Source: Psammoneis japonica
Taxonomy: Eukaryota
NCBI GenBank assembly: GCA_008632985.1
Contig: QPGO01000008.1
Location: 600,979 to 664,978 of the forward strand
Length of the DNA stretch: 64,000 nucleotides
Reading direction: 5' to 3'
The notes below the pieces were generated by a model, which worked only from the letters and a program-made list of their open reading frames with translations, ran no database searches and was not told where the DNA came from. Below are positions 2,289-34,589 of this stretch, in pieces (the stretch's first letter is position 1; every line of letters begins with the position of its first letter). The position numbers and the translations under genes were made by a program.

Positions 2289-2321
<33 letters not shown>

Positions 2322-7000: not shown

Positions 7001-9649
7001 GAGAGAGGAGAAAAGGAAGGAGAGAGAGAGGATGGATGGGGTGCACTGATGGGAGAGGACCTGCTGCACACAAGGCCAGTGGCTGCCTGCAATGACACAG
7101 AAGCAATTGCAGCCATGGCCAACAAACCAAACTGGTGTGTGAATGCAAACTGCAGCAAATGACAAAATCTGGAACATGGCAAAACCAAAGAGGCAAACTG
7201 CAATGCAATTGTCAGTCAAGAACAAATGGCAGTTGCAACATTTGCTTTCAAAACAACAGAAAGAGACAAAATGCAGAAGGATGTCACAGACAAAGATGGT
7301 GGAACATGTGCAGCAAGAGATGTGATGAAGGAATGAGGAACAGCAAATGTTGAAATTGTGGGCAAGAACATTCACACTTCAAAGTGGGGTGCAAATTTAG
7401 AATCAAAAAGCTCACAAACTTGGTCAGCTCTGAACTGACATTGCAAGGAAGACTTGGCTCACAAGTTCACAACAATCTGGGAGATTGCAGTCAAGAAATG
7501 CCCAGATTGTGACAGGTGGTCAGACCCAGATTGTTGGCATCCTGCTTTGCCAGTTGTTGGAGTTGAGCACATGCTGCTTCTCTTGATCATCTCTGTGTGA
7601 GCAGTGTGCTGAACTGTCTTTGACACAAATGGTGCAAACAACAAGTGAGAAATGTGATGGCATGCACATCCAGTGAAATTTTGCTGAGCTGCAAGTGTGA
7701 CAACAACAATTGAGAGGCTCTGTGATGGCTGAGATGCAGCAAATGCACAAGTGACCATCACTGCAGCTGTGGACCAGACATTGGAAATGGAGACTTTTCA
7801 ATTGCCAGATGCACAAAACCATTGTCAAAGGTGCCGAGAGACAAAAATGTGGCAGGGGCTGAGTGTCTCAGTGGTGCAGTTGTTTCAGATTTTGGATTGG
7901 CAACATTTGAATGCCCAAACTTGTGACACTTGTCATGGCACAAACACAGCTCCAAAAGGAGCCAAAAATCAGGGCTGAGCAACATCAGTCACAAACTCAA
8001 AAATCAAGCTCTGGACAATCTGGAGTTTTGCAACATGGACTTGAGTGCAGCCTGGTGAAAGTTCTGAGCCCAAGTGCACATTTTTTGTCAGCGTTGTCAA
8101 TTGCACCAACCCTCCAGGGCTTGTCTTTGTGTTGCTGAAGCATCACAGGAAGCATGGAATGAACACATGATCATGTGACTTGGCCAAGAAGGTTGTGTCA
8201 GCAGTCCAAAAGAGACAAGTCACAGAGTCAACAAAGGAGCACAAATCTGCCTGCAGCATTTCAAGCTGGGAGGCAGTGGCTGCATTGATTTCTGCTGATC
8301 ATTCTGTGCCTGCACTTTCACCAATGACACAAGGGTCAACAGCACTGGCCCAGGTTTTCCCAGCTCACAGTGGTTTGGTCCCAGCAGCCATTCAGCCAGT
8401 GGGAATGGATTTGAACAGATTGAGATTGTGGCAACAAGTTGCTGTAGATGGAGTTAAAAAAGGGATAAAAAGAGGACAACTCTGCACCAACATGAGAGCT
8501 GCAATTGCTCAAAAGTCAACAACAGTTGTTGTGGCACTGATCTAGAGGCAAAGCAGGGGTGGCAGTGCAGAGCAACCCCCCAGGGCCCCTGCAATGTGTG
8601 CTGACATCAGCAGGGCGGTGCAACTGATGGTGACCAACATCCAGCAGGGTGGCTGGGCTGTGGCTGAATGCCACATCTTTGCATGTCAAGAGACACAGAT
8701 CCTCTGCTTTTGTTTGAGGATGTGCGGGAATGTGATTTTCCTGCTCTGACTTTGTGCTGTGCAACATCCTGGTTGCTGCTGTCCTTTCTGCCCGGTGCAG
8801 CGGATGTGTCAGGATGGAGCACACATGAAGGCAACTGTGTCCATGATTGCAGCACAGCTGAAAAACTGACCACAGCTGTGGCATCACATGAGCCACATGA
8901 GAGACATGTGAGCACAGCAGCCAACCCTGGTGCAGCAAAACTGTGGCTGATCAGAAGACCATGGAAGCCAAGAGAGACCCACATCACCACCACATCAACT
9001 TGCTTGTGAGTGAGAAGCCTGGTGCGTGACAGCTGGTCTTGGTCAAGTTAGGAGTTGCAAAGCTGTGTCAGAGAAGCTCTGGATGATCTTACAAATTTTT
9101 TGAGTTTAGCTCAGCAGCACCCCAGACCTTTTTTCCTTCATGCTGAATCTCTTTTTGAGGCACAGTCTGCAGCCCTGGAAGAACAGCCATGTGTCCCTTG
9201 TGGGGGCAGGAGCATCATCCAGCACCTCTTTGCAAGCAGGAGGATTGTCAGACCACCTGTTGGTTGATGCATGTGCCTTCTGGAGCAGAAGTGCTTGTCG
9301 GCTCTCCAGGCTTGAACACGCCTTGTGTGGAAACATGCACTTTGCCCCCTCGCTCTTTGTTGTTTGCTCAAAGGCTGCCATGCTCAGGGATCTGCTGCCC
9401 CATGCCGTGGTTGTCCCCACTGCAGTTGCTCCCAACAACAACTTTGTCATCCTTGTGACAGTTGGTCTTGTTTGGCCAGCAGATTGTCTGGGCTGGGCTG
9501 GCGGGGACGGCACCTCTTGTGTCAGCGTTCAGAGGTGGTGGGTGTCTCACAGCAGCCAGCTGGGCCATTCCAGCTCACCTTGCCATCTCCATCATTCTCT
9601 GTTTCTTTTTGTTCCTCCTCATTGTGGTCAAAATCATTTTTGGTTGGCA

Positions 9650-10023
9650 TCATGGTCCAAAAAGCCAGGCAAGGGGCTCCTCCTTGTTTCCACCCCACGG
9701 AGGAATGACCCCACGACACATCATGATTGTCCTCTCAAGCATCAGCACATGATCACAGTGACTTGGGGAGGCTTGGCAAGGAAGATGAGGAGAGTTGGAA
9801 GGGAAAATTTGAACACCATGTACACAACAGGGTTCCAGGAAGTCTCTGTTGCAAGGATCAAGGCCCAACGAAAACTGAAGGGGAACGAATCAGAATCAAT
9901 CTCCAAATCATCGTCAAGCATTTTGGTTGGTCTGACAGTTGCACGTGCAGAGCTCGAAAGCCACCGCACGCAAGAGAAGCGGACAGAACTGGAACGAATG
10001 AAGCGAAGCAGCGGCATATCCAT
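9650..10023 (-). pseudogene. Candidate host gene head (mitochondrial-presequence-like) decaying into block A
   Basis: MDMPLLRFIRSSSVRFSCVRWLSSSAR lies head-to-head with the UCH gene. CpG-rich at the 5' end and progressively TA/CG-poor downstream. Confidence 0.3.
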
Positions 10024-10152
10024 AGCATCATCAATCGAACCGATAGGGCCCTACTTACTCTAGAGAGGAAACCTTACTACGACGTTCGATCTCGTCTGTG
10101 TCGCTTCCTCCTGTTGTAGTGTTCTCGTCCTGCTTTCACATACCACCGCAGA

Positions 10153-10851
10153 ATGTCGTCTGAAAATCCAGAGCAAACAAAGCAGTTCGCCTGGCCGCCT
10201 CTGGAAAGCAATCCGGAAGTGTTTACCGATTACATGCACAAGATTGGCTTAAGTCCAAACTGTGCCATTGGTGAAGTCTACGGTTTTGACGAAGAACTCT
10301 TGGCGTTTTTGCCCCAGCCCATATATGCAATTATCGTCGCTTTCGAACGCGATCGACGGTCAGATGTGAAAAAGGGCGACGCCGCGAATATTTCGCTTGT
10401 GAACTTTTACATGGATCAAAGCGGTACTCTGGACAATGCCTGCGGTATTATTGCCTGTATTCACGCCTCCCTAAACAGCGATGCGGTCGACATTTTGCCA
10501 GACAGCGTACTGGACAAGTTTCTAAAGGAGAACGCCACTACGACGCCGGCCGAACGCTGCAGCTCGCTGGAGAACAACACAGCCTTTAAGGAGATGCACC
10601 GTGGATTCGCCATGAAGGGGCAGTCGCAAGCCATCACAAGTGATCAGAGTAAGGTAAAGCATCATTATGTCGCTTTTGTTGTGAAACACGGAAAACTTAT
10701 TGAACTAGACGGGACCAAGAAAGGGCCGAATGTCATTGGAGATTGTGACGATGTTTTGCGTGGGACAATCGCCGAGATCCAGAAGCGAATCGCCAGCGGA
10801 GACATTTCAGAGTCCCTCAGCATGATGACGCTCAACGCTGCCTTTAACTGA
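10153..10851 (+). CDS. UCHL3: Ubiquitin C-terminal hydrolase, peptidase C12 (UCH-L3-like), 232 aa, intronless
   Basis: WPPLESNPEVF, Q..LDNACG (catalytic Cys), HYVAFV (His), LIELDG (Asp). Confidence 0.93.
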   Translation: MSSENPEQTKQFAWPPLESNPEVFTDYMHKIGLSPNCAIGEVYGFDEELLAFLPQPIYAIIVAFERDRRSDVKKGDAANISLVNFYMDQSGTLDNACGIIACIHASLNSDAVDILPDSVLDKFLKENATTTPAERCSSLENNTAFKEMHRGFAMKGQSQAITSDQSKVKHHYVAFVVKHGKLIELDGTKKGPNVIGDCDDVLRGTIAEIQKRIASGDISESLSMMTLNAAFN

Positions 10852-11823: not shown

Positions 11824-13561
11824 TTATGTGCATCCCTCTTCGTTGGGAGTCTTGAAGTCACGCATGTGAATCCTGTAGGTGGAGAAGAATGAAAAAGATT
11901 GTAAGAGAAGGATTATCACCGAGACGTCTTGAAAAAGGATTGGTACTTCATACTACTCACCATGCATTTGCGCCATACTGGACGTGGAGAAGAATGAAAA
12001 AGATTGTAAGAGAAGGATATCACCGAGACGCCTTGAAAAAGGATTTGTACTTCATACTACTCACCTTGACGCCTTTAATTACCGGCTTCGCTTCTGCAAC
12101 GAGGCATGAAAAATGATGTAAACAATGAGAACAATCATCACGAGCTCTTGAAATAGGCCTTGCACCACAAACTTACCGTGAATTGTTCGACCGTCCTTTT
12201 TGTCCGGATCTTCATCGAGAACACTTGGCCAAATGACGGCTCTACCGCGCTTGGGGGTCACCGTCATGCCAAGCATGGGGAATTCAGTGCCACCGCCTTC
12301 CTCGACGTCATTCAAATCTAAAGTAGACAAGAAAGGGAAGCGAGTTAGCTTGCTATTGAGAAGTCTCGGCGGACACACCGATTCCATATTCCATACTTAC
12401 AAATATAAACGGTAAGTAGTCGAACTCCGCTTTGGCGATCGAGCTGGTGTGGAATGTAGTCACTGTGGGTATGGTAATACTGGTTTTCTTCGTACTTGAG
12501 CATTTGCAAGTACTCGGAGTTGAGTTCAGGGATACCTGTGAGGTTGGAGATCCTGTCCATGACATTCCTTGCCAATGGATCCTTGTAGCATTCGTTTTGA
12601 CACCACGAGTTCATTGAAGTACGCCCGTTGTTCACAAAGTTGTCGTAAGTTCCATCGAACTTGCGCTCTCCCACATCAGAACTCCTCTCGTATCCCTCCT
12701 CGGCACCCAACTCAATGAGCCTTTCGCACTCTTCCGGAGTAGCGAATTCCTCAAACATGACTGCCCATGGACCAATATGGTAATCATCCTCGGCCTCTTC
12801 TTGTCTCTCCACCTGACCAGCTGCTGACTCTTCGTCTTTATGGGGCGCGGCCCTTGGCGAAAGACAATTCTTGTCCGGTTCAGGTCGAGAGAGAATCTTT
12901 GGCTTGAACTGTTTGTACTCCTCGTTGGTGACGATACGTTCAAACATGCGGTTCAAATCGCCTGGCTTCCAAACGTTTTGTTCTCGAATGGCGTCCTTAT
13001 CCAATGGACAACGGCTCTCAAACATCAACTTGTCGCAAGACTGGCACGAAGGGGCACAGTTGACCACCATGTAAGCGGGGTTATTTGTACACTCCCCTAG
13101 CAAGGCCCAAAAGGCGCAGTCCTCGTGTTGGTTCTTGCAGTGAGTCTTGATTTCTGTGTACTTTGGCTCGGTATACACAACGTCCCTCATATAAGCCATT
13201 GACTTGTCAATCCACGCCTGTATCTCGTCAGCGCGTGCTCCAACGACATTCTGTGGAACTCCGAGATCAATCGCACTTTACAGTATTGTTGCATACGGGG
13301 GGCGTGCATGATGTGGGTGAGGAAAAAACGAAAACAGCAGGGGAGGTCGAAGCACTCAAAGTAAACTTACACCGAGTCCTCCTGTTTGACGCTTCGAACT
13401 TCTTGTCCTAAACTTGGAGCGGCTTGCTGTAGAAGACATTCTCCATCGCTGTTAGTCTGACATTCTCCGTCGCTTTTGCTGCTGTTCAATCCGAGAACGA
13501 CACTCGCAAGAACAACGGAAATTGCAACAATGAAGTTACGGGGCTTTATGGATGAAAACAT
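11824..13561 (-). CDS. Secreted/ER ShKT-domain prolyl 4-hydroxylase (P4H paralogue 1), 6 exons
   Basis: Signal peptide MFSSIKPRNFIVAISVVLASVVLG; ShKT CKNQHEDCAFWA..ECTNNPAYMVVNCAPSCQSC; 2OG-Fe(II) motifs RTS, HSDY, YLNDVEEGGGT, H-E, KYGANAW; C-terminus IHMRDFKTPNEEGCT*. Introns include 11873-11960, 11978-12064 and 12094-12176. Confidence 0.9.
11873..12064 (-). repeat. Two near-identical adjacent introns (88 and 87 nt) flanking a 17-nt exon
   Basis: 11873-11960 and 11978-12064 differ by 4 substitutions and 1 indel. Both are GTGAGT...CAG on the minus strand. Exon 11961-11977 encodes YGANA(W). Confidence 0.9.
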
Positions 13562-17893: not shown

Positions 17894-20800
17894 GCGGGCT
17901 AAGTTCCTTGCGTCAAAATACGTGGAAAGGTTTGTTGTCGGCGTCACGGGCTGCGGCGCGGCATCGTGCTCCGCGCTGCGCGTGGGCACGAACGTCGCCC
18001 CAGTAGAATACGATCACTCTCTACTCTAGCTAGCTGCCACTCTAGAGAGTAGCTGTAGCAGCTAAACCCCATCGCCGTACTAAAACCAACATGGTCTCAC
18101 TGCGAGTTGGTCTAGGACAAGAAGATGATGTTCCGCACTGCTGCAATTGCGCTGGTCGCCGTGACCTCCCGCTTGCTCACAGGGCCAGAGCAGGGCCACT
18201 GTCTTCGTCACAGTGGGTGGACACAAGAAGGACAAGTGAACCCGAAATGCAAACCTGCCAAAGTGCAGAAACATGCCCATCAACCTGAGCCTGCTGCTGT
18301 CGACAGCAACATGGAGCGGCACATTTCAAATGTGTGTGGTGGTGTTTGTTTGAGATTCACCTGCCACATCCACACACCACACACCATCATGTGATCTTCC
18401 TTTTGTGCAAGAACACACTCTGTTGCTTGGCTTCTTTTTGCAGCGGGGCTCACCACCTTGCTTGGCTTGGCAATGTGACCCCTTGATGCACTGTTTTTGC
18501 AGCGTGCTGAGTGCAGTGGCAGGTGATCTGTGACAAGGAGCACACATGCTTTGAGAGAGAATCCAGAAGAGGAGCTGCTGCAAATTGTGCTGGAGTGAGC
18601 CAGTGCACTCCCAAGCACATCTGAGCTTGCGGGGGGAAGACCAAGAGACAAAAGAGCAGAGAGAGAGAGCAGCTGAGCAGAGCCACCTGTCTTTCTGCCA
18701 AGCACAAAAGCAGTTGTGCAGATTTTGAGGATGAGTTTCACATGTCTCACAGAACAGCTGAAGCATCTTTCTTTGCTTGTTCTGACATGAGCACCTGCTG
18801 GGGGGGGGGGCTGTGGCAATGACAAACAAGGTCAGTCAGCTGCCAACAGAAAAGCCCCCCCCCCAGCAAATCAGAAGAAGAGCAAGAACAAAGGGCAGAG
18901 TGGGTGCTTGACCCACTTGAAGCCCAGCTCAAAATTGATGCTGTGTGTTTCTTGCCCATGCCCCACCCCTTGCTCTTCTTTTTCTTCTTCTTCTTTGCTG
19001 TGAAGCACAGATCATCTGCTTGCTGTGAAGCAAAGATCATCCTCTGCACCTCAGCCAGAACCAGTTGGAGAAACTGAGGGCATCATTGTGGGATGAGCAG
19101 CAGCAGGAGTTGTTTGGAACAACATGTGCTGCATCTCAAAAGATTGGCCTGCTTGGTGTCTTGACATTTGCAAGTCTGATTTTTGGCAACAAAGATGGGC
19201 AATGGCAAGGTGTGACCTCTGCAAATTGATGCGCATGAAGAGAGTGTCAGCAGGCAGCAAAATGTCACATTTTCTTTGTGCTGCCACCATGCCAGCATCT
19301 CAACCAGCTAACTGCCAAGCCCTGTGTCAGCTGCAAATGTGCGCAGAAGCTTTGGTGTCATGTCAAATGCTTTTCCTTGGCCTTTGCTTCCCCCTTGATT
19401 TTGAAAGCAGGTTTCATGACATCCTTGTGATGTTGTGAATTGTGCATTCTTCAAAAACAAGCTTGGAGTGAGCAGCAAACTGCAGGGCTGTAGAAGCCTT
19501 TGCTTCTCAGCTCCCAGACTCAAAGGCACCAAAACTCAAAAGCATCAAATTTGTTAAAAACAAACTGTGCCTGTCTCAGCAGCAGCAGCAACAACAACAG
19601 CAACAATGACAACAGAACGCACCCAACCTTGCTCCCAACTGAATGCACTGCATTTTGTAAAAGCTGAGACAACTTTGACAAAATGGGAGGACAGCACTTT
19701 GTGCAGAGCACATGAATGAAAGTTGCACAGATCTTGAAAGCAGCAATTTGCTGGTCCTCTCAAAAGTTTTTGGAACAATGGATGCCTTGGCAAAAAAAAC
19801 TCAGCTTTGGCAAATGAAGGCTCTCAATTGTCTCACAGTCCTCAGGAGGATGTGTGCACAACAAAATGCACTGACTTCCCCACTTCACTTTTCAACTCCT
19901 GGGCTCAAAAGCACCAAGTTTCCTCAGAGCAATGATGTGCCCATTTGACAACAAGGCCATTGCCCTTTTGTTTCAGTCATTTGTCACACTGCTTGCTCTT
20001 TCACAAGCATGGCATGCTGCCATGTGCTGCAGAAGTTTTTGAAAGAGTCAGAGAAAGAAAGATTTTTGGGTGTGTGCACATTTGAAGTGTTTGCTGTCAA
20101 TTTTTTGTGCCATGCCTTTCAGCACAGAATCTTGATCCAAGCATCAACTTTCACATGGCTGTGCAACAAAACAAAAAAAAGCTGAATTTTTCCCCTCAGT
20201 GGAGCTGTGCAACTTGATCTGTGGTGCTTTCATGTGCAAAGCCCAAATCCTGATCTTTGTCAAGTGCCTGCACGGGCTGACTTGTGCCAAGCTGAGCTGA
20301 AGCTCCAGAGAAAATGTGGGGAGTCAAGTCAAAAGTCAGCTGACACTGGTGCTGCTAAAGTTGCAAAGCTGTTGCTGGCTTTGGTCCCTTGGTGCAGCTG
20401 CAGTGCCAAACATGCCCCACAAAAAGTTGGCCAACCTTCATGGCAAGCTCAATGCCATGGGGAGAACAACACCTGCCTGTTTTGGTGTTTTTGCAAAAAA
20501 TTGGCTCAAAGAGCATGTTGCTGTGAAAGTGCTCCTCTCTCAAGCATTTGTGGCTCCAACAGGGGTCAAAGTCCAGCCAATTCTCCTGACAATTTCAAGG
20601 TGAGTGTGGTCCACATGGGGTGCAAGACTTGCAACTTTGGAGACAGGCAACACAATGTTGTCCTGCCAACACCTGAGCAAATGCATGGCAACAAGAGCGC
20701 AAGACCCGCCCACCATTTTTGTGGGGCTCTGTTGCCCATTTGACCTCTTTGATGCTTTGAGCAGGTGGGGCTGCAAGCAACCCACAATGCTCATTGTGAG

Positions 20801-21122
20801 CCACACTCTTCCATTTTCAGATTCAACACCTGCACCTTTGCAGCCAAAACAAGCCAGGGAGGAGGAGCTCCACTCACTCAAATTTGTGGGGTCAGTGGTC
20901 AGCAGCTTCTGGCCACTTTCTTCTTGAACCATGCACCAAGAATCTTTGGATGAACTTTGGCTTGCATTTTTGTTTCTTGCTTGCTCTGAGCCAACTCTCT
21001 CCAACTGGAAAATGCAGAATGCAGAACCACTGCAGTTGACACTTCCTTGAAGAAATTCTGTGTGAAATGTTGCCATTTGTTGCCATTCAGGAGAAAACAG
21101 TTGGACAAGTTTCAATGGAGCC

Positions 21123-21283
21123 TGACAGACATCCGAGATGGGGAGTGCACTCCCTTGTGTCGGACAGACTGGCATGGACAGCATGGAGAGATCCGATGAT
21201 CTCTCCTTTGCTTGCTTTCTTTCTCATTGAGTGCACGATTGTCATCTGTCCTGGATGTCCGTTAGATTGTCCCGACACCGCCA
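21123..21283 (+). repeat. 5' LTR
   Basis: TGACAGACATCCGAG...CCGCCA; aligns without gaps to 28027-28187 with 15 mismatches. Confidence 0.95.
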
Positions 21284-21493
21284 GTCCGTGAGGTTGTGAG
21301 CAGCAGTGCGCTGTTCCTCTTCCTCTGTGCTCCTCCACCGCAACGCCTGTTGTGTGACTTGGCGACCTTTTCTTCATTGAAATCGTCATCATTGTCACAG
21401 CTGTTTTTTCACCTCTCAATTTGTGATCAAACGACCACCGCAGAACACACACCAGACCTCTGCGCAGGAATTTGATTTTTTTCCCGTGCAACC

Positions 21494-23595
21494 ATGGTGA
21501 ACAAAAATCAAAACACCGTCGATTTGACCAAGATCAAGACAACACGGGTTGAATTCAGCCCACATGATTGCTTGCCCGATGCCCACATTTTCCTGAACAC
21601 CTTCCATTCGGACGCAATCCCTGCTCCTGAAGATCTTTTAGATGGATTTGCTCCTCAAGGCCTCAAGCACGATGCTGTTGCTGTTCTCCATCATGAGATT
21701 GTTCAGAATCTCATCATCCCTGAAGCTGCCCTGACCAAAGATCTCACATGAATCAGGCCGATCATTGAAAAGGCCCCTCTCTTTGTGGCCACCCCTCAAG
21801 GCTCCCCGGTTCATCTGAACCTCAGCACTCTTCAGAACGCTGTGGTCGAAGCGATCACAGAGAATCACAGCACCACAAAGGCACATGTTGGCACTTTACG
21901 TTTCCATTTCAGTCCTGGTTTCTCCGGCATTGTGATTGCTGGGATGACATTTCAGATGATCCGCATCCAGTCCCACCGGCCACTTCAAGTTCTACATCCC
22001 CATCGGTTGCTGCTGCAGGTCCTGCTCTTGAAGACTTTGCCAAGGCCTCAGCTGCTCATTTGCCTGGTCCAAAACAGTTTGAGCAAGCTGTGACAAATGC
22101 GTTGAAGAACTCCACTCCCAAGGTGTCATCTCCTGCACCATCTGCCATGGCTGCCACTGGCACAGCTTCTTCATTGACTGCTGCCAGTGCCTTGCACACC
22201 TTCAATCTGAAAGGACTTCCAAAGGATGTGCTGGCCTGCTGTCAACGCAAAGAAGCCGGGAAAGCAGTGCTCGGAAAATCACTGGCACCTTGCAAGTCTG
22301 GAAACCTTTGTCACGAGGATGGTGCTGAGCGTCTGATCCTCACCGATGGTTCTCTCTTTGTTCATTGCACTGACTGGGATGCGAAGTCTTTCCTTCGTGA
22401 CCCTCTCACTTGTGACAATGTCTCTCCTCAAGGAATTCGTGCGTGGTGCACCACTGCAACCCAACAAGCCTCGGCTTGTGGCATGTGCATGCACCCTCTG
22501 TGGTGTTTCATCAAGGATGGTGGAAACTGGGGTTTCACATGTGGCAATGATCCAACCGATGATCTCCCTCTCCAGATGACTGTGCCACTGGACCAAATGA
22601 AACTGACCATCTTCCAGCACATTCAGAAAGTTGGAATTTTTTCCGGCAGAGTCCAAGCACCCTGACATTGTTCGTCAATGCTGTGGTGATGGATGTGCTG
22701 CTGTCAAGATGATTCTCTTTGACATCCCGCCGATTTGGACGAAGCGTCCACATGAGTTGATCAAGAGCCACCCGCACCAAAACAATCTTGTGGTCCTTGG
22801 CTGCCATGCTCTCTTCAGAGACCACCTCCAGCTGCGAGCTGTCATCTCCAACGTTGATGCTTCTCTTGACAACCCTGGTGAGCTGGGTGTTTTTCTCAGC
22901 AATGCTCGCCATGGCGAGCACCTTCACCACAAAAAACCGCAGATGCCCGGGAAGACAAGAATCAACAACACAAGTTCACACAGAAGAAGATTGTTGAAAC
23001 TGTCAGTGCGATTCTCAAGGAACCGGATGGCCCTGCTCTTCGTGTCAAGGACCCTCCCAAATGTCCTCTACGTCGTCTTCACACTTCGCCTGCTCCTTCT
23101 CTTGCAGCTCCCGTCTGAGGTCTTGACTTGCTTCCCAAAGATGAAGTCTCTCCTCCGCCTCCAGCGATTGAGGAGCCTCCCAAGGAACCTGAACCTCCTG
23201 CTGCGGAAGAACCTGTGGAAACCATGGAGCATTTTGTGAATGAACTTGCTGCTGTGGATGTCCCCACAGATGATGATGCACAGGCCCTCCATGGTGTCTG
23301 CAAGGCCTGCATCCACAGGATCAAGTCCTCTCCTGCCATTGCACAGAACCGTCCGTGTGCAGTTTGTGGTGACAACCACTTGTTCCATGAGTGTCCTGTG
23401 TTGAATGATGCTGAGTGCCTGCGCACTCATCTCATTTGGTTCTCCCAGTTCCTCCAACATGATCAGCATGCTCGTGATGCACTCAAGTCTGACACAGCCA
23501 AGAAGGATTTTTCCTGGGGCCATTGTCATGTTCCGACAAACAATGCCGCCCATCCTCCTCCAATCCAAAAATTCCTGCAAGCAGGGCAACTGTGA
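21494..23595 (+). pseudogene. gag-like region of the Copia element (interrupted)
   Basis: Successive broken ORFs after the 5' LTR; zinc knuckle RPCAVCGDNHLFHECPVL near 23350. Confidence 0.7.
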
Positions 23596-23838
23596 AAGAG
23601 GGTCCAACCGACTCGTCACCTTCCGCTGATGTTCCTCTTTCACCTGTGTCATTTGCCAACCATCTTTTGGGCTCGACGAAGGCTGGCACTCCAGATCCCA
23701 AGACGATTCCTGATGATGACCCTGGCAATCACAATCAGGGGAGGGAACCAGACCTTTCTACACTGGATGCTGATGTCCCATTGTCCACTGATCAAGACCA
23801 AGAATTTGAGCATCTTGACATGACCAACACCCCTGCAT

Positions 23839-26800
23839 TTGTCGCCCCTCAGTGCTGCACGCATCTCCCCAATTTTTTCTCCCCTGGAGTCACCTGCGAC
23901 CTTTGCATTCTTGACTGCTCCAGTCATCCCCATCAATCATGTGCTTCATGATTCAACGACATGTCGTGCTCAGATTGATGCTGGCGCTTGGGTGTCCTGC
24001 ACAGGGGACAAGAACCTCCTCCATGCCTGTGCTCCTTTTGGACTGGACAACCCTTGTCCTTTGAAGATTCTTCCTGCTGCTGAAGGCTCTGATGTGGTCC
24101 CTCATGGCTTTGGTTGTCCACAGGTGCCTGCAGACAATCCTGAAGGTTTTCTTCTTGTGTGCACTTTTTACCATCCCAGCCTGCATTCCACTTTGATTGA
24201 CAAACGTGATTTTGCACGGGCTTCTGGTTTCAAACCTCAGTCCATTCGATCCGAGGTCGGTGCTTGCACTCACACTGCTTCCGCTGATGCTCAAGAGGCA
24301 GTTGTCCATGGCATGCTTCGACATGGCAAGGTCTTCACACAACCCCTGGTTCCTCCGTCTGCATCTCATGTCCCTTCAACATCAACGACCCCTGACTTGT
24401 CCTTGGTTGATGATGTTGATGATGTTGATGATGCATGCCAATGCGCAGTCTTTTTTGTCAATGTCCAACAAAGTCCATCCGATCCCTTGCTGATGGATGC
24501 TGAGCTGTTTTTGATGCAGTGTGACTCGGCTCCCCATGTCTCACCTCCGTTGTCTGCCCCTGCTCCAGTCCGCTCTCTCAAGGTTGAGACTGAACATCTT
24601 CTGTGGCATCAATGCCTTGGACATCCCAGCGATCACTGCTTGTACAATGCTCACAAGTGCATCAAGGGCGTCCCGAAGTTCCAACATGCCAATCCTGTCC
24701 TTGACATGTGTCCTGCGTGTGTCCAAGCCAAGCAAGTCAAGACTCCTGCTGGACCAAACACAACCCAAAAGGTGACCCAGCCATGCCAAGGCCTTGCTGT
24801 GGATTTTGCTTTCGCTGGCCAGGCTTCCAAGAATGAAGACTGCAAGGTTGATCATCTTGGACACAGTGGTGAAACGTGTTGGATCGCTGTCTACGATCAT
24901 CACACACGGATGCTCCATGGAGTGGCAAGGGTTTCCAAAGCCAGTCCTCTCAAGTGGCTTTGCCGATTCTTGGATGGACATTCACCAAATTGTCGTGACA
25001 AATGTGCACTCATGGACCAAGGTGGAGAATTGTGCAAAAATCCCAAAGTTCGTGACCTCTTTGAACGAGAATTCCAGCATGACATCTGTCCTTCTGGCGC
25101 TGGTGCATCCAACCAATGTGGACCTGTTGAACGCTCACATTCAACTGTTGAAAATGCGATTCGTGCAATTTTAATTGGTGCCAACCTTCCGATTCGATTC
25201 TGGCCCTGTGCTTTTTACCATCACCTCTGCATCAAGAATGCTGCTCCTGCAAAAGATCAAGATGCGGCACCCATCACTCTTGCCACCGGAAAGGTTGAAG
25301 ATTTTACTGCTCTGAAGACTTTCAGATGTCAAGTGTGGTCCAAACGGTCCACTGCTCGTTCTGCTGCTTTCCGGACCAATTCCAAGAAGGGTGCATTCCT
25401 TGGCTGCCTTCCAAACACCCTGAAGAATGTTGTGTGGTGGGATCCTGAGACTGATGAAGTCAAGACGGCCAAGCATGTGTGCTGCGATGAAGGTGTGAAT
25501 GATCTGTTTTTGGATCAACTTCCTCCCAATGCCATCCATTTACAGTGTGTGGAAAATGGTCAGCCTTTTCCAGCTGAAACACAGGACACCACCGTTCCTC
25601 TGTTTGCCTCTTCGTCGAATCCTTTTGCTGCAACTGTTGCATGTGCCATGAAACGTCCCCCAAAGGATCCCACCTGTGGTTTTGGATTTTCCCAGTGTGT
25701 GCTGATGGACCGTGTCTGTGCATCACAAATCAAGCAGTGCAGTCATGCAGCATCTTTGTTCTCTTCTCTCCGTGCTGCTCACAACAAGATTGTGGGTGCA
25801 TGCATTGTCTCTGTCAACAAGCATGAAGCATTTGCTCCAAAGGATGCTGAAGAGGCTTTGTCTCAGGTCTTCCATGATGAAATCCCGACCTTCGAGATTG
25901 CTTTTGCGCCGGAACAATGATTGGATTCTCGCACCCTTGATGAGGCATTTGAGGAAGCGGAGTTGTTTGAACCTGATTCCTTGGAGGATGACTCCCATGT
26001 TCCTGAACTCACTTTGGAGGATGTGTGATCTGTCACGGCCCTTCTCTGTCCTGATGATGATTTTTCAGATGAGGCCATCCCTGCTGATGTGTTCCATGCC
26101 CACCTCAATGCGATTTGCTCCCGCTCTCTCACTCCGGAGGAAGCTGCTCTTGACTGCCTCACCCGTGCCAAGCTTCGTAAACTTGACACATGGCCTGAAT
26201 GGGAAGAAGGCGAGCAGCGTCAATTGGATCAATTTTGTGCCCTTGGTGTGTGTGGTCCTCCTCAACCACGTCCCCCTGGCGTGAACGTCATGCGTCCGCA
26301 TTGGGATCACATGGTGAAGCCGGATGGACAACGTCATTCTCGGCAATGTGGTGATGGTTCCAAGTCGGAAATGCCGGCCTTGCACAAGTTGACTTCCACC
26401 TGTTTGTCATGTGTGGAACGCTCCATCAAAAAGATGTTTTTTGCTCTCAGTGCAGCTGTGTCACATTGTGTCTTCGGCGGTGATGCTCGGGATGCCTGCG
26501 CTCATTCTCCTGGTCCTTCACAGCCAGTTTTCGTTGCTGTTGATGATGCACACATGCTGCCTGGCATGAAAAGAGATTTGGCAAGAAAGCGCCCCGCCAT
26601 TGTGTTCTCCCACTCAAGCATGCTCTTCAAGGTCACCCTGAAGCTGGTGTCCTTTGGGAAAAGCACATCAACTCAATTCCAACGGGTGCAAAACTTCTTT
26701 TCTGCAACGCTGCTCATGACAAGTGCATCCATTCTGGTGAATGTGATGGTGTCAAGGTCCTTCCACTCCATCAGGTCGATGATTTTGCTCTTGCTTGTCC

Positions 26801-27884
26801 CTCCAAAAAGATTGCAAAAGAGATCTACAACCATGTTGGCAAGGCTCTCCAGATGGAGAATGAGGGCACTCCTCCGTTCAAGTGTTTGGGCTCAGTTGCT
26901 GAGTTCAACGGCATTGATGTCATCCAAAATGACGGCTCGATTGCTGTCAATGTTGCCAGCTGCCTTGATCATGTTTTCAAGACCCATGGTTGGGATGCTC
27001 CCACTGCAAATGAATCTGAGTCTGATTTCAAGGCTGCACCTGTGCCGGTTGATTGTGTCCCTGATCTGTGTGCCACTGAAGGTCCTGAAGAGGGCACTCC
27101 TGAGTGCAGTGCTCTTGCTGAGTCCCAGGGTTTCTCTTGCCGTTCTGTTCTGGGTGAATTGGTCTTCACCTGCTCCTGTTGTCGTTTGGACATTGGTCAT
27201 CCCATTGTTGCCTTGTCCAAGTTTTCCAAGGCCCCGGCTGAGCTTCGTTGTGATTCACTCAAGCGCATGGCCAAGTGTTTGCGGTGCACCAAACATTGGG
27301 GGCTGACGTGTGAGAAGTCCAAGCGCGATCCCGGTCTGCCTCCTTGCAATTTCGAGTGGCTTGAGGATGACCCATCTCTCCCGGACTTCCCTTGTGCTGA
27401 TGACCTTTTCCAACTTCTTGGTTTCATTGACACAGCACATGCCAGTGAACCATGGCATCGCCGCTCTGCTGCTGGATGTGCGCATGTCCTTGCTGGTGCT
27501 GCAATTGACTGTTGTTGCCATGCACAGATGATTGCCACCACCAGTTCCACGGAAGCTGAGTTTCTCGCGGCTGTTGCTGGTGCGAAACAGACCCTGTGCC
27601 TCCGCATGGTTCTGGAAGAATTGGGCTTTCCTCAACGTGATCCTGCTCCCTTGCACATTGATGGCTCCTCCGCCATCCAGATGTTCAATGACAAGGTGCC
27701 TGCGGAGCGATCCTGCCATGTTGACATTCAACATTTTGCTGTCCAAGACTGGTGTGACACAGGCAAGATTGTCACTCAACATGTCCCGGGTGTCATTGAC
27801 CCTGCTGATGTGCTGACCAAGGCTGTGGGTTGGACGATGCTTCGTTCCCGCCATGCCCGCCATTTGATGGGACATTGCCATTGA
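23839..27884 (+). pseudogene. Copia pol (protease, integrase, RT, RNase H) with frameshifts, stops and hypermutation
   Basis: QIDAGA (protease), LWHQCLGH, CPAC, VDFAF, DQGGEL, GPVERSH, FWPCAF, FLGC, RPHW, GGDARDACAHSP, ALQGHPEAG, HQVDDFALA, GFIDTAHA, SSTEAEFLAAV, HVDIQHFAVQDW, DPADVLTK. Confidence 0.93.
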
Positions 27885-28026
27885 CTGTCATCAGGTTTTG
27901 TTGTGGATTGAGTCTTGGGTGTGTCTCTTTTTTCTTTGTTTTGTTCTTTGCCATTCTGGTCCTCTCTTTTCATTCGGATCGTCCATTTTTTTCTTGTTGA
28001 GCATTGCATTGCTTGTCAGGGGAGGA

Positions 28027-28187
28027 TGACAGACATCCGAGATGGGGAGTGCACTCCCTTGTGTCGGACAGACTAGCACAGACAGCATGGAGAGATCCGA
28101 TGATCTCTCCTTTGCTCACTTTCTTTCTCATCTAGCACACGATTGTCATCTGTCCTGGACATCCATCAGATTGTCCCAACACCACCA
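28027..28187 (+). repeat. 3' LTR
   Basis: Preceded by the PPT and followed by TSD GAGCC. Confidence 0.95.
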
Positions 28188-30844
28188 GAGCCAAGCCACC
28201 ATGCTCTCCACAGCAAAAAATCTTGGAGCTGCATCCTTTGCTTGCACAATGATGGGCTCAAGCCCATCACAAGCACGGCACAGAGTTGCAGCACATGCCA
28301 TTGCATGTGGCAAAAGCATGTCTTGGCAAGCTCTTCTCTCTAGAATGAGGGCGGTCTCTTGAGTGGATGACCTTGTGGCCCAGTCTTGAGCAGGGTGTGG
28401 CACAGACAAAACATTCCAAAGTCTGCCAAGGGAGAAAGGTCCAAAGCAAACAGAGTTTTGCACAAGTTTGCCACTGCTGGGAGCTGACTTTCATTTGCTC
28501 CTCATGGTCACACCCAGGCAGGAGGTTCGAGGGAATCCAGTGCACCTGGCACACCACTTCAAAGTGTTGCTGAAAGGTTGGCACCCAAAGCAGGCAGTTC
28601 ACAGCACACACATCATTTTTTGTGACATCATGACTCGCTGTTTTGTCCAGCCTCTGTCACCATTGAGTGGAGTGCAAACAAGTCAGCACCATCAGCATGG
28701 CCCGCTTCCATTTGAGCTTCTTTTTGCAAAAGAAAAAGTGGAGGATGCTGCTGAGAAAAGTGGTGCACCATTTGGCCATTCTTTTGTTTCCTTGCCAACT
28801 CATGCTTTGTGTTGCAGCAGTTGCAGTGGCCACTTTTGCCAAGACTGCCACAGACTGGCTCAAATTGTTTTTTGTCACTCATCTGGAAGAGATCCTGGGC
28901 ACCACATTTTTGCCGTGGGTGCTGCAGCTCTGTCATGAAAGTTGTTTTGTAGATCCATGTCAACACCCTGGTTTTGTTGGAGCCAGCAACATGCCAACAC
29001 ACCTTCCTTTTGATGTTCTCATCACAGTTTTTTTGGGTCAATCACCATGTTGGGTCTGTCAACAGCATGAAGTGGACCACACAGACAGCATGACTGAGCC
29101 TCTCCATCATGTCAAAATGCCCTCCATTGCCACATGCAGCCACCACATGATTTTTTCAAGCACAGCCAAAAACATCAACTGCAACAGCATCAAAGCAAGT
29201 GTTGCAAGCAAGCCACAAGCTGTGGCAACAGAGATGATGCTGCAGCCAGCAGGCAGTGAGCTTTTCCAGCCCAGCAGCAAAGAGCGAAGCTTGCAACATG
29301 TGCAGGTGCCAGAAGGAGCTTTTGTGGTGAAGTTGTTGGACTTGGACATGGCAAAGATCTTTGGCTGCTTCTGCCTGCCCTTGCTGCCATCTTCTGTGAC
29401 ACACCCTTGGCATCCTGTTGTGATGGCAGCAGGTTCACATGCCTGTCACAAATTCCAACATTCTGCACTCCTTGTGGGCTTCCCCCTGCTGTCATGTTGC
29501 TGTGGCCACATTTCCACATTTTGTGGAACCAAGCTCAGCTCTCATGTCTTTCAGACAGCAGCTCTTGTCAGGATCAAGACTCAGACACTCAAAGCTTGGA
29601 TTGGACTGCTGCTGTCAGAAGCTGAGCGCTGGCCTCAATGGCAGAATCTGTGGGGTTCTTGCAGTGAAGCCATTCATGGATGCACTGCAGAGCAACCAGG
29701 AAATCAGCACCACACAATGATGCAGAAGCCAAGGTCAAGGCAATGTGCTCATGAGCAGACAATTGTTTGGCTCACACTTGCTGGAATCTTCACTTGACAA
29801 ACACCTCACCTGTGCATCACACACGGTGAGAAATTGGCTGCAAATCTGTGGCAAAAACAACACTCAAAAGTTGAGCATTCAGGGAGCCAAAGGTTCACTG
29901 CTGGAGGCAAACAAGCCATTGAGTGAAGAGGGTGCATCCACCTGCCCCCTCAAACCACAAAGTCACCCATCTCATTGACCAGCAGCATTTGGGTGAAATG
30001 TGCTCCAGTGCTTGCATTTGCAGGCAGAGCCTGTCATGCAAAACTGTGCTTCCCACATGCAGCCACTCCTGTCCCATGGTGGCACCTTCACCACACTTCA
30101 CCTGGTCACAAAGTGCCCACACTCTGACAACCTTCTGCCTTGCATGATGGCTCCCGCCCAGGAAAATGGCCACATCCTTCAGCCCCCCACTGTCTGGAGC
30201 TCTTCAAGCTTTGCTGGTGCTGCAGGTGGACCTGTGTGAATCCAACCAAATCCATGCAGAGCAGAGGAGTTGTCAGAGCTGTGTGCTGTGTTTGAAGTGT
30301 GGCACCAGCTGCTGCAGAGCAGGCAAAGTGATGCAATGACTCTTGGTCACTTGACCAGCTCAGTGTCTGGCCATCACTGACCAGGCTGCTGTCGCTGGCC
30401 GGAACCCAAGTTGCCTCTTGCCACTTGAGTTGAACTTCCCTCATTTGACCTCTCTCACTGCATCAAGAGAGGTGGCAAAAAAGAGACTTTTGTCATTTTG
30501 CAACAACAAAAGTGGACAGCTAAAAGGAGACCTCTGTGGTTCTAGCTGTTGCTGTCACCGTGGTGGAGTGGTCTGGAGTTAAGAGCTCCGTGAATGACAG
30601 ACCTGTGCCACCAAATCTACATGGAGTGGAGTTATCACCTCGTTCTGTTCGAAGCGGCGTACAGCAAAAAGGCAAGTACTTCTACACTGCACTGCAGGCC
30701 CTCTCTGTGTAGCTTCATTGCTTCCGGACAATAAAAACGGAAAGAAACATCGTGATGTGATCTATTACTACTGTGGAGTGCCCTAATCTCTACTCAGCTA
30801 CCGGCAAACTAGGTTCCTTAATCTGGTGAACAATGCAGTCACCT

Positions 30845-32547
30845 TTATGAACAGCCATTATCGTGAGGTGTGATGTAGTCCCTCTGGTGCAACTGCCCGA
30901 TTGTGAGAACAACGAAAGAAAGTCCTGTTAGACACATCGAACAACGAGTGAATCATCGTCAGGCGATTGCATGGTATACTCACCCATGAATTTACACCAT
31001 ATTTCACACCCTTGATGACTGGCTTTGCTTCTGAACGAGGCATGAAAATGATTCGAACGATTAGAATAATCATGAGCTCTTCAAATAGGCATTGCATCAT
31101 AGTCTTACCATGCTCGGTGCGTTCATCGATGGCGTTGGGATCGTCGTTCAATACACTAGGCCACAACAGCGCTCTTCCACGTTTAGGTTGAACCGTCAAA
31201 TCGAGATCTGGGAAGCCTGTGCCTCCACCCTCCTCCACATCATTCAGATACAAATAAAGTGTCATCAGTCTGACCCCCTGCGGGCGGTCAACTTCAAAAT
31301 CGATATAATCGTGATGCTTGACATAGTGCTGCCCAGGCTCGTACCTTAAAAGTTGGAGGTGCTCAGAATTGTTTTTCGGGATCCCCGTCACGTCTTCAAT
31401 TCTCTGAATAACTGATTGAGCAACAGGATCCTCGGCACAAACGCCCTCGCACCACGCGTTGGTCGAGGTGCGACCTTCGTTAACGTCATCTTCAAATGTG
31501 CCATCAAAGCTCATTTCACCAACATCTGCGCTGCGTTCATATCCCTCCTTGGCACCCAGCTCAATGAGCCTTTCGCACTCTTTCTGCGAGGCAAAATTCT
31601 CTAAAATCACCACCCAAGGTCCAATTTGATAGTCAACGTTCGACGCCTTCGAGTCACCCTTGGCCAAATACGGACGAGACAACGCGTGAGGCTGATACTT
31701 CTCATACTTCGGAAAGGTAAGAATCTTTTCAAACATATGATCCACGTCGCCGCTTTCCCAGACGCCTTTATCGGTCCTATCCCACGGACATCTCTCTTCG
31801 TGCAGTAGCTTTTCGCAAATCTGACACGCTGGTCCACAATTCATAATCATGAATTCGTACTCTTTTTCTTCCTCATCGCAGGCTCCATCGAGGGCCCACA
31901 AACTAAAGTCGCCCAAGAAAAATCTTCTGATGAGCCAATTCTTGTCGGAACAAGGTATCGGCACACTTGGTTCAACTCACCTGCAGTCCTCTTCGAAATT
32001 TTTACAATGAAACCTCACTTTTTCGTATTTGGGCTCGATCATTACCACATTTGTCATGTATTCAACCGCCTTATTCACCATGTCCTTGACCTCATCCGAA
32101 CGAGTCCCTGCGTCGTTTGTGGGACGCCAACACTTATGGGCTCGCTGAAGTAACGAGGAGAATCCAGGGATGCAATGAGAGACAAAAACACTTATCGTGC
32201 ACGATGATACATCGGTACAAAATGAACTACACACATCATTCCTGAGCCTACCAGTATTACTTACTCGCACATCTTACAAGCCTTCCGGCAGTATTCCTCC
32301 ATAAAAGAAGGGTTCTCTTTACATTCACTAGGCTTGAGATTCGCCCAAAACTCACACTCTTCGTCCTCGTTTACACATGGGTATTCCGAGATCACTCCAC
32401 CTCGATGAGATTGTATTCATCGACGTCATCTATGCACGTGCCATCAGCAGAGCAGTTTTCGTCAAGCTCTTCGCCAAACAAGAGACTCGGTATCAGTATT
32501 AGTACACTTAAGATAGAAGCGTAACGAAAGGCCGAGACAAACATCAT
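30845..32547 (-). CDS. ShKT-domain prolyl 4-hydroxylase (P4H paralogue 2); two apparent -1 frameshifts near the 5' end (pseudogene or consensus error)
   Basis: Signal peptide MMFVSAFRYASILSVLILIPSLLFG; two ShKT domains; GRTS, HHDY, LYLNDVEEGGGT, KYGVNSW, LHQRDYITPHDNGCS*. Frame breaks near 32415 and 32117. Confidence 0.8.
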
Positions 32548-32811: not shown

Positions 32812-34589
32812 TTATTGACAATTATTTTCACTCGGGGTTTTGAAGTCCTTCTGGTGCAACTGTTTCATGAAAAGCGGGCAAAGCGTGAGACATATGGCCT
32901 GCAAGAGACCTTTTTTACAAATCTAGTAGAGAAGTCGTAAACTCACCCACTGGGCAGTGATACGAAAGTTTAATTTGTGAGTGACTGAGTGAGTGACTGA
33001 GTGAGAAACTGAGTGAGTGACTTACAGCATTTGCACCAAATTTCACGCCCTTTTCGACAGGTAAAGCGGCGTGGTAAGTCCGACCGTCTTTACGATTCGG
33101 GTGGCTGTCCAACACGCTAGGCCACAACAGAGCTCTTCCACGTTTTGGTGTAACTGTGAGTTTCAGATTCGTAAACTGCGTTGCTCCTCCTGCTTCAACA
33201 TCGTTCAAGTACAAAAACACCGTAATGGTTCTGACCCCACTCTGCCGGTTGACCTGGTATGGTATGTAGTCATGATGCATCTGGTAGAACTCGTTTACCT
33301 TTATTGCCGTCGTTCGGCGGGCAATGGTTACGGATAAGAAAGACTGCATTTCTAACACTTCCACCAACCAGAGCCAGACTCACCTCATATTTCAACAACT
33401 GAAGATATTCAGAGTTACGTTCCTCGATACCAGTTAGATTAGCGATTTTCTCCATGACAGTCTTTGCAACGGGGTCTTCGTAACATGTGTGTTGACACCA
33501 GGCATTCTTGGAGGTGCGGCCATCATTGACATTGCTTTCAGTCGTCCCGTCAAATTTCATCTTGCCCACATCAGCACTTCGCTCGTATCCCTCTTCTGCA
33601 CCAAGCTCAATCAATTTGTCACATTGTTCTGGAGTAAGGAAATCATCAAGAACAACAACCCACGGCCCGTCTATCGGCGCGCTTTCGTCGTCAGCTTCGT
33701 TATTCGACTTGAATTTTAGCAAGCTTTTGATCCGATCGGTAATACCCTTCTTCTTCTTCTTCTCGTCAGTATTCTGTACTGGTTCCTTGCCTTTTGGTAC
33801 TTTACTCTTTGCAGGCTTGGATAGAATCTGTGGATTATACTTTTCGTATTCTTTGTCTGTCACAATCCGCATAAACATTTTGTTCACGTCACCTGGCTTC
33901 AACGCATCAGGTGGCAAATCATCCATCGGACATCTGGTCTCGTAGTCAATCAAATCACACGTCTGACAAGAGGGGGCGCACTGGAGCTGCATGAAGTTAG
34001 GGTTTTTCTCACACTCGCCGATAAGTGCCCAGAAAGAACAGTCGACGTGACGGTTCTTGCAATGCCGCATTACTCTCTTGTACTTTGAATTCACCATAAC
34101 CTCCGTTCGCATGTAGTCAATAGTTTTCTCCAGAATAGCTCGAATCTCGTAAGCACGCGGACCAGCGAGCTTCTGCTTTTCACCTAAATCAAACTCAAGG
34201 TCATCCTCAATACTAGGAAGCACAATCCTATCAGAAAAGTCACATCATGCAGCGTGTCAAAACTGAGAGAACGAAGCACGAAACATACTTTCACGGCTAA
34301 TTCTTCGGGCGACTTACATGTTCTCGCAAGCGTTGCACGATTTACGGCAATTGTGCAACATATAATTGGGATTGGCCTCGCACTCGCCTTTACGGGCCCA
34401 GAATTGACATTCCTGATGCTCATCCTCGCACGATACTGCTGCACCTTCGGCGTTGTTGTCCGTGCAAGTGCCGTCATCAGCCGAGCAAGTTTTCGCATCC
34501 ACCCCGCCACTTTCTACGACCGATACTGTGTCACTACTAGCAACCAGAATGAGATTCAGAAGGACGATTAATAGCGAGATTCTCTTCAT
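32812..34589 (-). CDS. ShKT-domain prolyl 4-hydroxylase (P4H paralogue 3) with a predicted 3-nt micro-exon
   Basis: MKRISLLIVLLNLILVASS; two ShKT domains; GRTS, HHDY, FLYLNDVEAGGAT, HAALPV, KFGANA|W|LHQKDFKTPSENNCQ*. Confidence 0.9.

Follow-up and report, generated by a model that had tools for sequence, protein, structure and literature searches.

A probable TpA-to-TpG/CpA hypermutation process in transposon-derived domains of a diatom genome

The Copia element at 21123-28187

We analyzed a 64,000-nt stretch of contig QPGO01000008.1 (the window), and within it a Ty1/copia retrotransposon at 21123-28187 that is nearly devoid of the dinucleotide TA. A preliminary description of this DNA had proposed that transposons in this genome are hypermutated from TpA to TpG or CpA by a second mutator, in addition to the decay of CpG that results from deamination of 5-methylcytosine. 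Judging by the window's Elp4 gene, whose best named matches are from Fragilaria, Nitzschia, Epithemia, Cylindrotheca, and others (all at 55% identity or below), the host is a diatom.

The positions 21123-28187 correspond to exactly one Ty1/copia long terminal repeat (LTR) retrotransposon on the forward strand. The 5' LTR (21123-21283, 161 bp) and the 3' LTR (28027-28187) are direct repeats of each other, and both begin with TG and end with CA. Directly outside of them is an identical 5-mer, the target-site duplication GAGCC (21118-21122 and 28188-28192), and directly before the 3' LTR is a polypurine tract, CAGGGGAGGA (28017-28026, read from the sequence). Between the LTRs, the domains of pol are in the order protease, integrase, reverse transcriptase, RNase H, and they are collinear in tblastn with polyproteins of 1280-1692 amino acids. 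The leader and presumed gag region (21284-23943) is as low in TA as the remaining element and has no family match; the five open reading frames (ORFs) of 21785-23951 hit no Pfam families.

The pol gene is in two frames. Based on tblastn, Pfam, and homologues, the first frame (23944-26552) encodes the protease, the integrase, and the start of the reverse transcriptase, and it has in-frame TGA codons at 25918 and 26026. After a frameshift at ~26550-26553, the second frame (26553-27881) encodes the rest of the reverse transcriptase and RNase H. All five long homologue alignments from tblastn switch frame at 26553. Other copies of the family, from a public run that contains the region (X1), have two fewer bases at 26549 or 26553, so the frameshift looks private to the window copy. 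The Pfam matches in pol are marginal: gag_pre-integrs scored 28.2 bits, just below its cut-off of 28.4, and SH3_retrovirus scored 27.3 against a cut-off of 27. Pfam's rve and RVT_2 had no match in pol, which we attribute to the mutation load. A HMMER search of 1.84 billion representative proteins gave 2342 homologues with E ≤ 0.001, the best of them at 40-55% identity.

Self-BLAST of the window revealed no further copies besides the LTR pair, and a 251-aa integrase query had just 8 matches in the protein collection, the best at 61% identity, which means no copies from the same species there. An exact look-up of 5 host proteins in the collection also gave no match. In X1, contigs of the region have a word depth of ~57, while the summed word depth of the Copia family is 1500-4500, or ~30-80 copy-equivalents. 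In one X1 contig (depth 37), 21102 and 28191 are joined, with 17 other letters in between; this is an allele or copy of the surrounding block that lacks the Copia element. The site may be heterozygous for the element, or the block may be duplicated. X1 also has contigs of depth 44-48 with 14 differences in ~500 nt at 28234-28740 and 8 differences in ~530 nt at 20357-20889. Alleles or paralogues could account for these, with a much faster divergence than that of the genes, where X1 and the window have no differences in 3935 nt. Two other public runs (X2 and X3) cover next to none of the stretch, and we did not use them as evidence.

Direction, timing, and context of TA loss

We describe composition by the ratio of observed to expected dinucleotides (o/e), and our genic reference is 37 kb of gene sequence within the window, with a TA o/e of 0.63 and a CG o/e of 1.01. 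The Copia element has 17 TA in 7065 bp (o/e 0.04), where ~260 would be expected if the genic o/e applied. Its CG o/e is 0.46, and TG (1.73) and CA (1.52) are in excess. The counts that first drew attention to the element were reproduced: there is 1 TA in the 600 bp of 24001-24600 (o/e 0.03), versus 14 TA in the 300 bp of 10201-10500. More broadly, six transposable-element segments, totalling 24.7 kb, have a TA o/e of 0.01-0.12 and o/e values of 1.5-2.0 for both TG and CA.

We aligned the conceptual pol product (1347 codons) to 18 homologues and considered columns with at least 60% agreement among at least 5 homologues. At 27 columns with Tyr as the consensus, the window copy has Tyr just once, along with 13 Cys and 6 His. 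For Gly, Pro, Trp, Gln, Glu, Phe, Cys, Asp, and Ser, the window copy agrees with the consensus in 75-100% of columns. Conserved residues other than Tyr are retained in 71-100% of columns, except for those with codons that can contain TA or CG or lie next to it. The exceptions include Thr, which is replaced by Ala in 7 columns, and Ile, which is replaced by Val in 11; in their codons, a G can arise behind a preceding T. Of the 40 Arg columns, 19 are unchanged, and the others include 6 with Lys, 5 with Cys, 4 with His, and 2 with Gln. Overall, Tyr makes up 0.6% of the window copy and 2.5-4.5% of the homologues. We also sought the Y.DD motif of reverse transcriptase in the homologue consensus, and none was resolved in that alignment.

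Setting aside 43 columns with more than one change and 13 ambiguous columns, most of the inferred A>G changes in pol follow a T (30 of 37), and the next base is T in 23 cases, C in 12, A in 2, and G in none. Similarly, 11 of 14 inferred T>C changes precede an A. The inferred C>T changes (11, with 8 before G) and G>A changes (19, with 10 after C) often fall in CG, and there are 22 inferred transversions of all types. The loss of Tyr and this spectrum of changes imply that TA was once present and was then converted to TG and CA. In both the window's pol and L043, a metagenomic copy that we discuss below, A>G and T>C changes are concentrated at TpA.

The preliminary description had argued for the same direction from individual motifs, which we checked against the homologues. 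Tyr is the usual residue in FWPY, now FWPC (15 of 18 homologues), and in PLY.D, now PLHID (8 of 12), as is Asn in the NP that became DP (10 of 11). The two motifs that had been ascribed to CpG decay, LWHQR to LWHQC and ERSR to ERSC, have Arg in 18 of 18 homologues and in all 11 aligned homologues, respectively. For other motifs, the proposed Tyr is one of two common states: the homologues of FLGC have 10 Tyr and 8 Phe, and those of DAC have 6 Tyr and 6 Phe. The change from WxY to WDH is a weak case, with 6 Tyr and 6 Asn among 14 homologues, and the change from DTG to DAG in the protease is ambiguous because homologues have either Gly (8) or Thr (6) at that site.

The two LTRs of a retrotransposon are identical at integration, so differences between them date from after integration. 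The 161-bp LTRs in the window differ at 15 positions, of which 13 are in sites of the pyrimidine-purine (YpR) type: 4 TG/CA doubles, 2 sites with TA in one LTR and TG or CA in the other, and 3 CG/CA sites. Just 2 differences are of any other kind. A TG/CA double arises because the same ancestral TA (or CG) was struck on opposite strands in each LTR. A simple model of loss from two copies gives ~10 ancestral TA per 161 bp, which is a normal density, with ~89% of TA lost from each LTR independently and ~27% of CpG lost. By a rough estimate from this pair, TA loss is ~7x faster per site than CpG decay. It is also ~100-fold above background, although this estimate is indirect, has a wide margin, and comes from the LTR pair and not from de novo mutations. 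The LTRs of L060, a partly mutated metagenomic copy, differ at 13 positions, which comprise 2 TG/CA doubles, 7 TA/TG-or-CA sites, 1 CG/TG site, and 1 transversion. In both of these elements, TA loss took place in integrated DNA.

Searching metagenome contigs with an integrase-region alignment, we obtained 80 Copia loci. The TA o/e is 0.4 or higher in 72 of them, 0.2-0.4 in 7, and 0.01 in L043, which has 4 TA in 5501 bp. L043 has 23 aligned relatives with 75-84% DNA identity. In this family of 24, the TA o/e is 0.20-0.44 in 5 copies and 0.55-0.67 in 18, so TA loss varies from copy to copy. We then computed rates for each copy, relative to the DNA consensus of the other family copies. At TpA, L043 has 106 A>G changes in 184 sites and 65 T>C changes in 166 sites; its rates elsewhere are 7% for other A>G, 11% for other T>C, 11-14% at CpG, and 2.7% for transversions. 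The corresponding rates at TpA are 9% (A>G) and 4% (T>C) in L037 and 5% and 0% in L065, and TpA loss is intermediate in L059, L061, and L020. CpG decay is similar in the mutated and unmutated copies of this family.

Two other metagenomic contigs, L041 and L039, are 99.6% identical and contain a Copia copy with intermediate TA loss. There are ~5 TA per 500 bp inside and 16-23 in the flanks, so that a border of depletion is visible within one contig. Among 157 database homologues, ~10 are poor in Tyr and mostly rich in Cys, a hint that there are further cases. The database Copia homologues P0132, P0163, P0171, P0198, P0202, P0215, P0233, and P0258 have 0-1.1% Tyr and 3-6% Cys. These are probably translations of further TpA-hypermutated copies in public assemblies.

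The loss of TA depends on its neighbors. The ratio of trinucleotide frequencies between transposable elements and genes is 0.00 for TAT/ATA, 0.04 for TAC/GTA, 0.09 for TAG/CTA, and 0.13 for TAA/TTA. Of the residual TA in transposable elements, 97% has neither A before it nor T after it (BTAV), versus 55% in genes (Fisher p = 1e-26). Per-strand rates of A>G by the 3' base are 0.51 for TAT, 0.59 for TAC, 0.33 for TAG, and 0.27 for TAA in L043, and 0.43, 0.47, 0.21, and 0.09, respectively, in L059. This order, with pyrimidines (Y) above purines (R) at the 3' base, is also seen in L061; the weakly mutated L020 does not show it. The motif is T-A-Y on the strand with the changed A or, if T is the target, R-T-A.

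As the preliminary description stated, both strands are affected, and we find no strand-coordinated runs. L043 has 86 sites that turned into TG and 58 that turned into CA, and these form 67 runs where 70.2 ± 5.6 were expected (the runs test is not significant). Each TA seems to be struck singly, on either strand, in contrast to the tracts left by APOBEC- or ADAR-type enzymes. The excess of changes on the sense strand of pol, with Tyr becoming Cys more often than His, arises because Tyr codons are always TAY on that strand. Local skew between TG and CA was significant in 2 of 42 500-bp bins, and we do not claim any regional strand bias.

Low-TA blocks across the window

From 200-bp bins and lists of TA positions, we identified four low-TA blocks in the window (TA o/e of 0.01-0.16), so the depletion extends well past the element that was originally flagged. 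The borders of the blocks are resolved to 100-200 bp. Between the blocks, genes and very AT-rich intergenic DNA keep a TA o/e of 0.4-1.2.

The Copia element lies in the block at 18114-30520: the last dense TA is at 18113, and TA is dense again from 30521. The flanks of the element (18201-21111 and 28189-30400) are nearly free of CG as well (CG o/e of 0.08). Copia lies within an older block that is nearly devoid of TA and CG and that has no Pfam match or recognizable protein domain. A second old domain, recognized from its composition and TA positions, is at 565-10016 (TA o/e of 0.04, CG o/e of 0.12). It contains long ORFs without a Pfam match, and it ends ~140 bp upstream of the start codon of a gene for ubiquitin C-terminal hydrolase (10153). 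The old blocks have depths of 55-105 in X1, so they are near single copy today. We found no tblastn match between Copia polyproteins and the old blocks. The fourth block, at 63216-64000, is depleted in both TA and CG and extends beyond the end of the window.

The remaining block, at 50787-53207, was identified from composition and repeats and is younger. Its TA o/e is 0.04-0.16, while its CG o/e is still 0.62-0.94, so TA loss is independent of CpG decay. Overlapping this block is a 1.8-kb unit (51429-53218) with inverted repeats of ~120 bp at its ends (51429-51549 and 53101-53218, 92.6% identical). Inside the unit, at 51643-52178, are 180-bp tandem repeats with 82-85% identity among them; the repeats differ by, among others, 9 TG/CA doubles and 9 CG/TG-or-CA sites. 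The 1.8-kb unit, with low TA and most of its CG kept, may be a non-autonomous DNA transposon.

The blocks affect gene prediction. A six-frame listing of 20000-30000 includes 33 ORFs of at least 100 amino acids in 10 kb, which overlap each other on both strands. The erasure of TAA and TAG has left ORFs in these blocks long and overlapping. The ORF at 9140-10063, which has an ATG start and 307 amino acids and belongs to no family, is an example of a potentially spurious gene call.

We also noticed two features of the genic sequence. Valyl-tRNA synthetase, on the reverse strand at 54824-57677, is spread over two overlapping ORFs (56427-57677 and 54824-56692), and either an intron or a frameshift could account for this in a gene that is normal in other respects. 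And the genic stretch at 12066-12786 has weak DNA similarity (69-76%) to 31003-31635 and 33406-33649; these are probably members of a paralogous gene family that flank the transposon block.

Interpretation and comparison with known systems

We are fairly confident that a real process at the DNA level converts TpA to TpG or CpA in transposon-derived domains of this diatom genome, with the same signature as in the alga Bigelowiella natans (see below). This statement covers several properties jointly: the process acts after integration, on either strand, at single sites, with a preference for T-A-Y, much faster than CpG decay, and presumably in silenced chromatin. It draws on the direction and timing of the changes, the strand symmetry without tracts, the effect of the 3' neighbor, the sharp borders, the independence from CpG decay, and the heterogeneity among copies of the metagenomic family. 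The idea of a second mutator beside 5-methylcytosine deamination is supported by the direction, the timing, the independence from CpG, and the reality of the sequence. As for the chemistry, we give enzymatic deamination of adenine to hypoxanthine about an even chance. A deaminase-fold enzyme would be recruited to silent chromatin, where the adenine in TpA would become hypoxanthine and would be read as G. This could defend the genome by destroying Tyr codons, TAA and TAG stops, and TA-rich regulatory sites.

Several observations weigh against this interpretation or narrow it. The older blocks are only putative transposons: a Pfam search with 21 of their long ORFs gave no convincing matches. The process is far from universal, as TA is at normal levels in 72 of the 80 environmental Copia loci. 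The metagenomic family need not come from a diatom, so it does not speak to spread within that group. L043 also has higher rates of A>G and T>C outside of TpA (7% and 11%) than clean copies do (2-6%); part of this is probably error in the consensus. Run X1 has no recorded library type and might be from the same sample as the window, so it is not independent proof of the bases. And chemistry directed at A or at T would give the same outcome in double-stranded DNA.

Could the missing TA be an artefact of sequencing or assembly? If modified bases in methylated transposon DNA were miscalled, TA and CG might be read as TG or CA. Strand-dependent miscalls would also produce a mixture of TG and CA, as well as doubles between repeats, and the lack of a library type for X1 leaves room for this. 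But X1 matches the genes exactly, and a 1430-nt contig from X1 matches the TA-free sequence at 28968-30396 with no other letters and 1 gap, which would not be expected from noisy long reads. (In all, X1 and the window have 1843 differences, mostly transitions: 275 A>G, 375 G>A, 423 C>T, 398 T>C, and 372 transversions. Several TG/CA doubles are among the 40 differences that were listed, which are not a random sample.) Also, an independent metagenome assembly contains both the saturated L043 and 18 members of its family with a TA o/e of 0.55-0.67, and Tyr-poor, mostly Cys-rich homologues come from other sources. Because the X1 contigs are exact and copies of the metagenomic family range from untouched through half-mutated to saturated, a base-calling artefact is unlikely, and we consider it highly improbable as an explanation for the results overall. 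It is just as improbable that the active lineage of the element is itself poor in TA, due to selection or co-evolution, with no change after insertion. In 23839-25920, 4 of the 7 residual TA are in in-frame TAC codons for Tyr, which could hint at some selection while the element was earlier mutated at a sub-lethal level. However, strictly conserved residues have been replaced (as in FWPY and LWHQR, both now ending in Cys), pol contains two stops and a frameshift, the model of the LTRs requires ~10 TA in each at insertion, Tyr and TA are at normal levels in the closest relatives, and unrelated blocks are depleted as well.

Another explanation is that an ADAR- or ADAT-like enzyme edits the RNA or cDNA of the retrotransposon and that mutated copies are then inserted. 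This would account for the excess of A>G on the sense strand, such as 13 Cys versus 6 His at consensus-Tyr columns, 30 versus 11 changes at TpA in pol, and 86 TG versus 58 CA in L043. The Tyr-codon context explains that excess without editing, and editing before integration does not explain why the LTRs differ at TA-derived sites (~10 sites in the window element and ~9 in L060), why both strands are affected without coordinated runs, why blocks without any signature of retroelements are equally depleted, or why the borders do not track one element. We think that editing before integration is very unlikely. A version of the same process with different chemistry is less easily set aside: the T of 5'-R-T-A-3' might be modified so that it mispairs with G, leading to T>C. 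One example would be oxidation to 5-hydroxymethyluracil by a TET/JBP-type dioxygenase; in dinoflagellate DNA, 5-hydroxymethyluracil is enriched at TpA. All of the sequence results fit this route equally, since T-A-Y is R-T-A on the other strand. There is no positive evidence for it here, and the preference for T-A-C/T resembles the U33-A34-C35 context of TadA-type enzymes. The authors of the B. natans study also favor an ADAT2-like deaminase, without an experiment (10.64898/2026.01.13.699255). We view modification of thymine as rather unlikely.

If adenine is the target, a broader proposal is possible, although we lean against it: diatoms and chlorarachniophytes, and perhaps more of the SAR group (stramenopiles, alveolates, and Rhizaria), would share a chromatin-targeted deaminase that acts on flipped-out adenine at TpA (T-A-Y) in double-stranded DNA. 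On this view, strand tracts would be absent, and the two strands would compete at each site, because the enzyme works on duplex DNA and not on long single-stranded intermediates. Such an enzyme would be a natural adenine base editor of DNA, and it would provide a heritable defense against transposons and integrated viruses, beside cytosine methylation and independently of it. A natural DNA adenine deaminase, if this is true, would be of interest for base editing. A comparison of genomes that carry the footprint with genomes that lack it might reveal the enzyme. There is also a practical warning for annotation: the affected elements lose Tyr, TAA, and TAG, give rise to spurious six-frame ORFs, and escape domain searches.

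Among the known processes, deamination of 5-methylcytosine at CpG accounts for the CG part of the pattern: the replacement of Arg by Cys, His, or Gln, the CG/CA differences between LTRs, and the CG o/e of 0.05-0.46. It is unable to remove TA. Many diatoms carry DNMT4, which is related to the RIP enzyme RID and is described as having an unknown function (Hoguin et al. 2023, PMC9998398). DNMT4 could be relevant to the CG part, but not to the loss of TA. We rejected APOBEC-type mutation (at TC) and biased T:G repair, which had been suggested as a source in the preliminary description, because neither one removes TA.

Adenosine deaminases that act on polynucleotides (TadA or ADAT2-ADAT3, ADAR, and the A-to-I editing of mRNA in fungi) also cause A to be read as G, and they also prefer U or T on the 5' side of the A. 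Their known natural substrates are RNA, whereas the changes here are in integrated DNA. The preference for T-A-C/T agrees with the U-A-C loop of TadA substrates; ADAR favors G on the 3' side and fungal editing favors A or G, in contrast to the 3' pyrimidines here. ADAT2 paralogues are candidates for the enzyme, and so are the deaminase-SAM-Tudor proteins found only in stramenopiles, but they are candidates only. These proteins are among the deaminase families that are restricted to or present in stramenopiles, according to Iyer et al. 2011 (PMC3239186).

Heritable hypermutation of mobile DNA has long been regarded as a fungal speciality, namely repeat-induced point mutation (RIP). As in the RIP of ascomycetes, dense transitions on both strands inactivate mobile DNA within sharply bounded domains while genes are spared, and the process can be read from dinucleotides. 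But RIP changes C to T, mostly at CpA, which turns into TpA, and the DNA gains TA and becomes AT-rich. The TA-depleted segments of the window have instead lost TA and have an excess of CA and TG, and their GC content is 0.48-0.53. RIP also requires duplication, RID or DIM-2, and a premeiotic stage, none of which are shown here. Fungal RIP is a functional analogue of the process in this genome and its chemical opposite.

The sole description of TpA hypermutation that we found in the literature is a 2026 bioRxiv preprint on B. natans, a rhizarian (10.64898/2026.01.13.699255), so such a process has already been described once; we found no report of it from diatoms, and no mention of diatoms in the sections of the preprint that we read. 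In mutation-accumulation lines, an integrated giant virus and a virophage together had 231 mutations, of which 230 were A>G or T>C, all of them at TpA. The rate was ~6e-7 per site per generation, and only some lines were affected. TpA-depleted genes in B. natans were enriched for reverse transcriptase and DDE domains, and an ADAT2-like deaminase was proposed, without a test.

The processes in B. natans and in this diatom are alike in that they cause transitions only at TpA, yielding TpG or CpA, and are confined to particular integrated or foreign DNA. Heterogeneity is seen among lines in B. natans and, here, among copies of the metagenomic family. Both processes leave a long-term footprint of TpA depletion with an excess of CpA and TpG. 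In B. natans, the evidence is direct, from de novo mutations; here, it is a footprint. The targets in B. natans are viral insertions present in single copy; here they are LTR retrotransposons, along with repeats that could not be classified, and the host is a stramenopile. The depletion here is saturated (TA o/e of 0.01-0.04, versus 0.45 in the giant-virus region of B. natans), and it coexists with strong CpG decay. The order of the 3' neighbors (Y above R) and the absence of strand tracts are not addressed for B. natans in the sections of that study that we read. Our results add constraints on the mechanism: it acts after integration, on both strands without tracts, at T-A-Y, and faster than CpG decay and independently of it. 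With this diatom, the signature is known from two major algal lineages, and its targets include transposons besides viruses.

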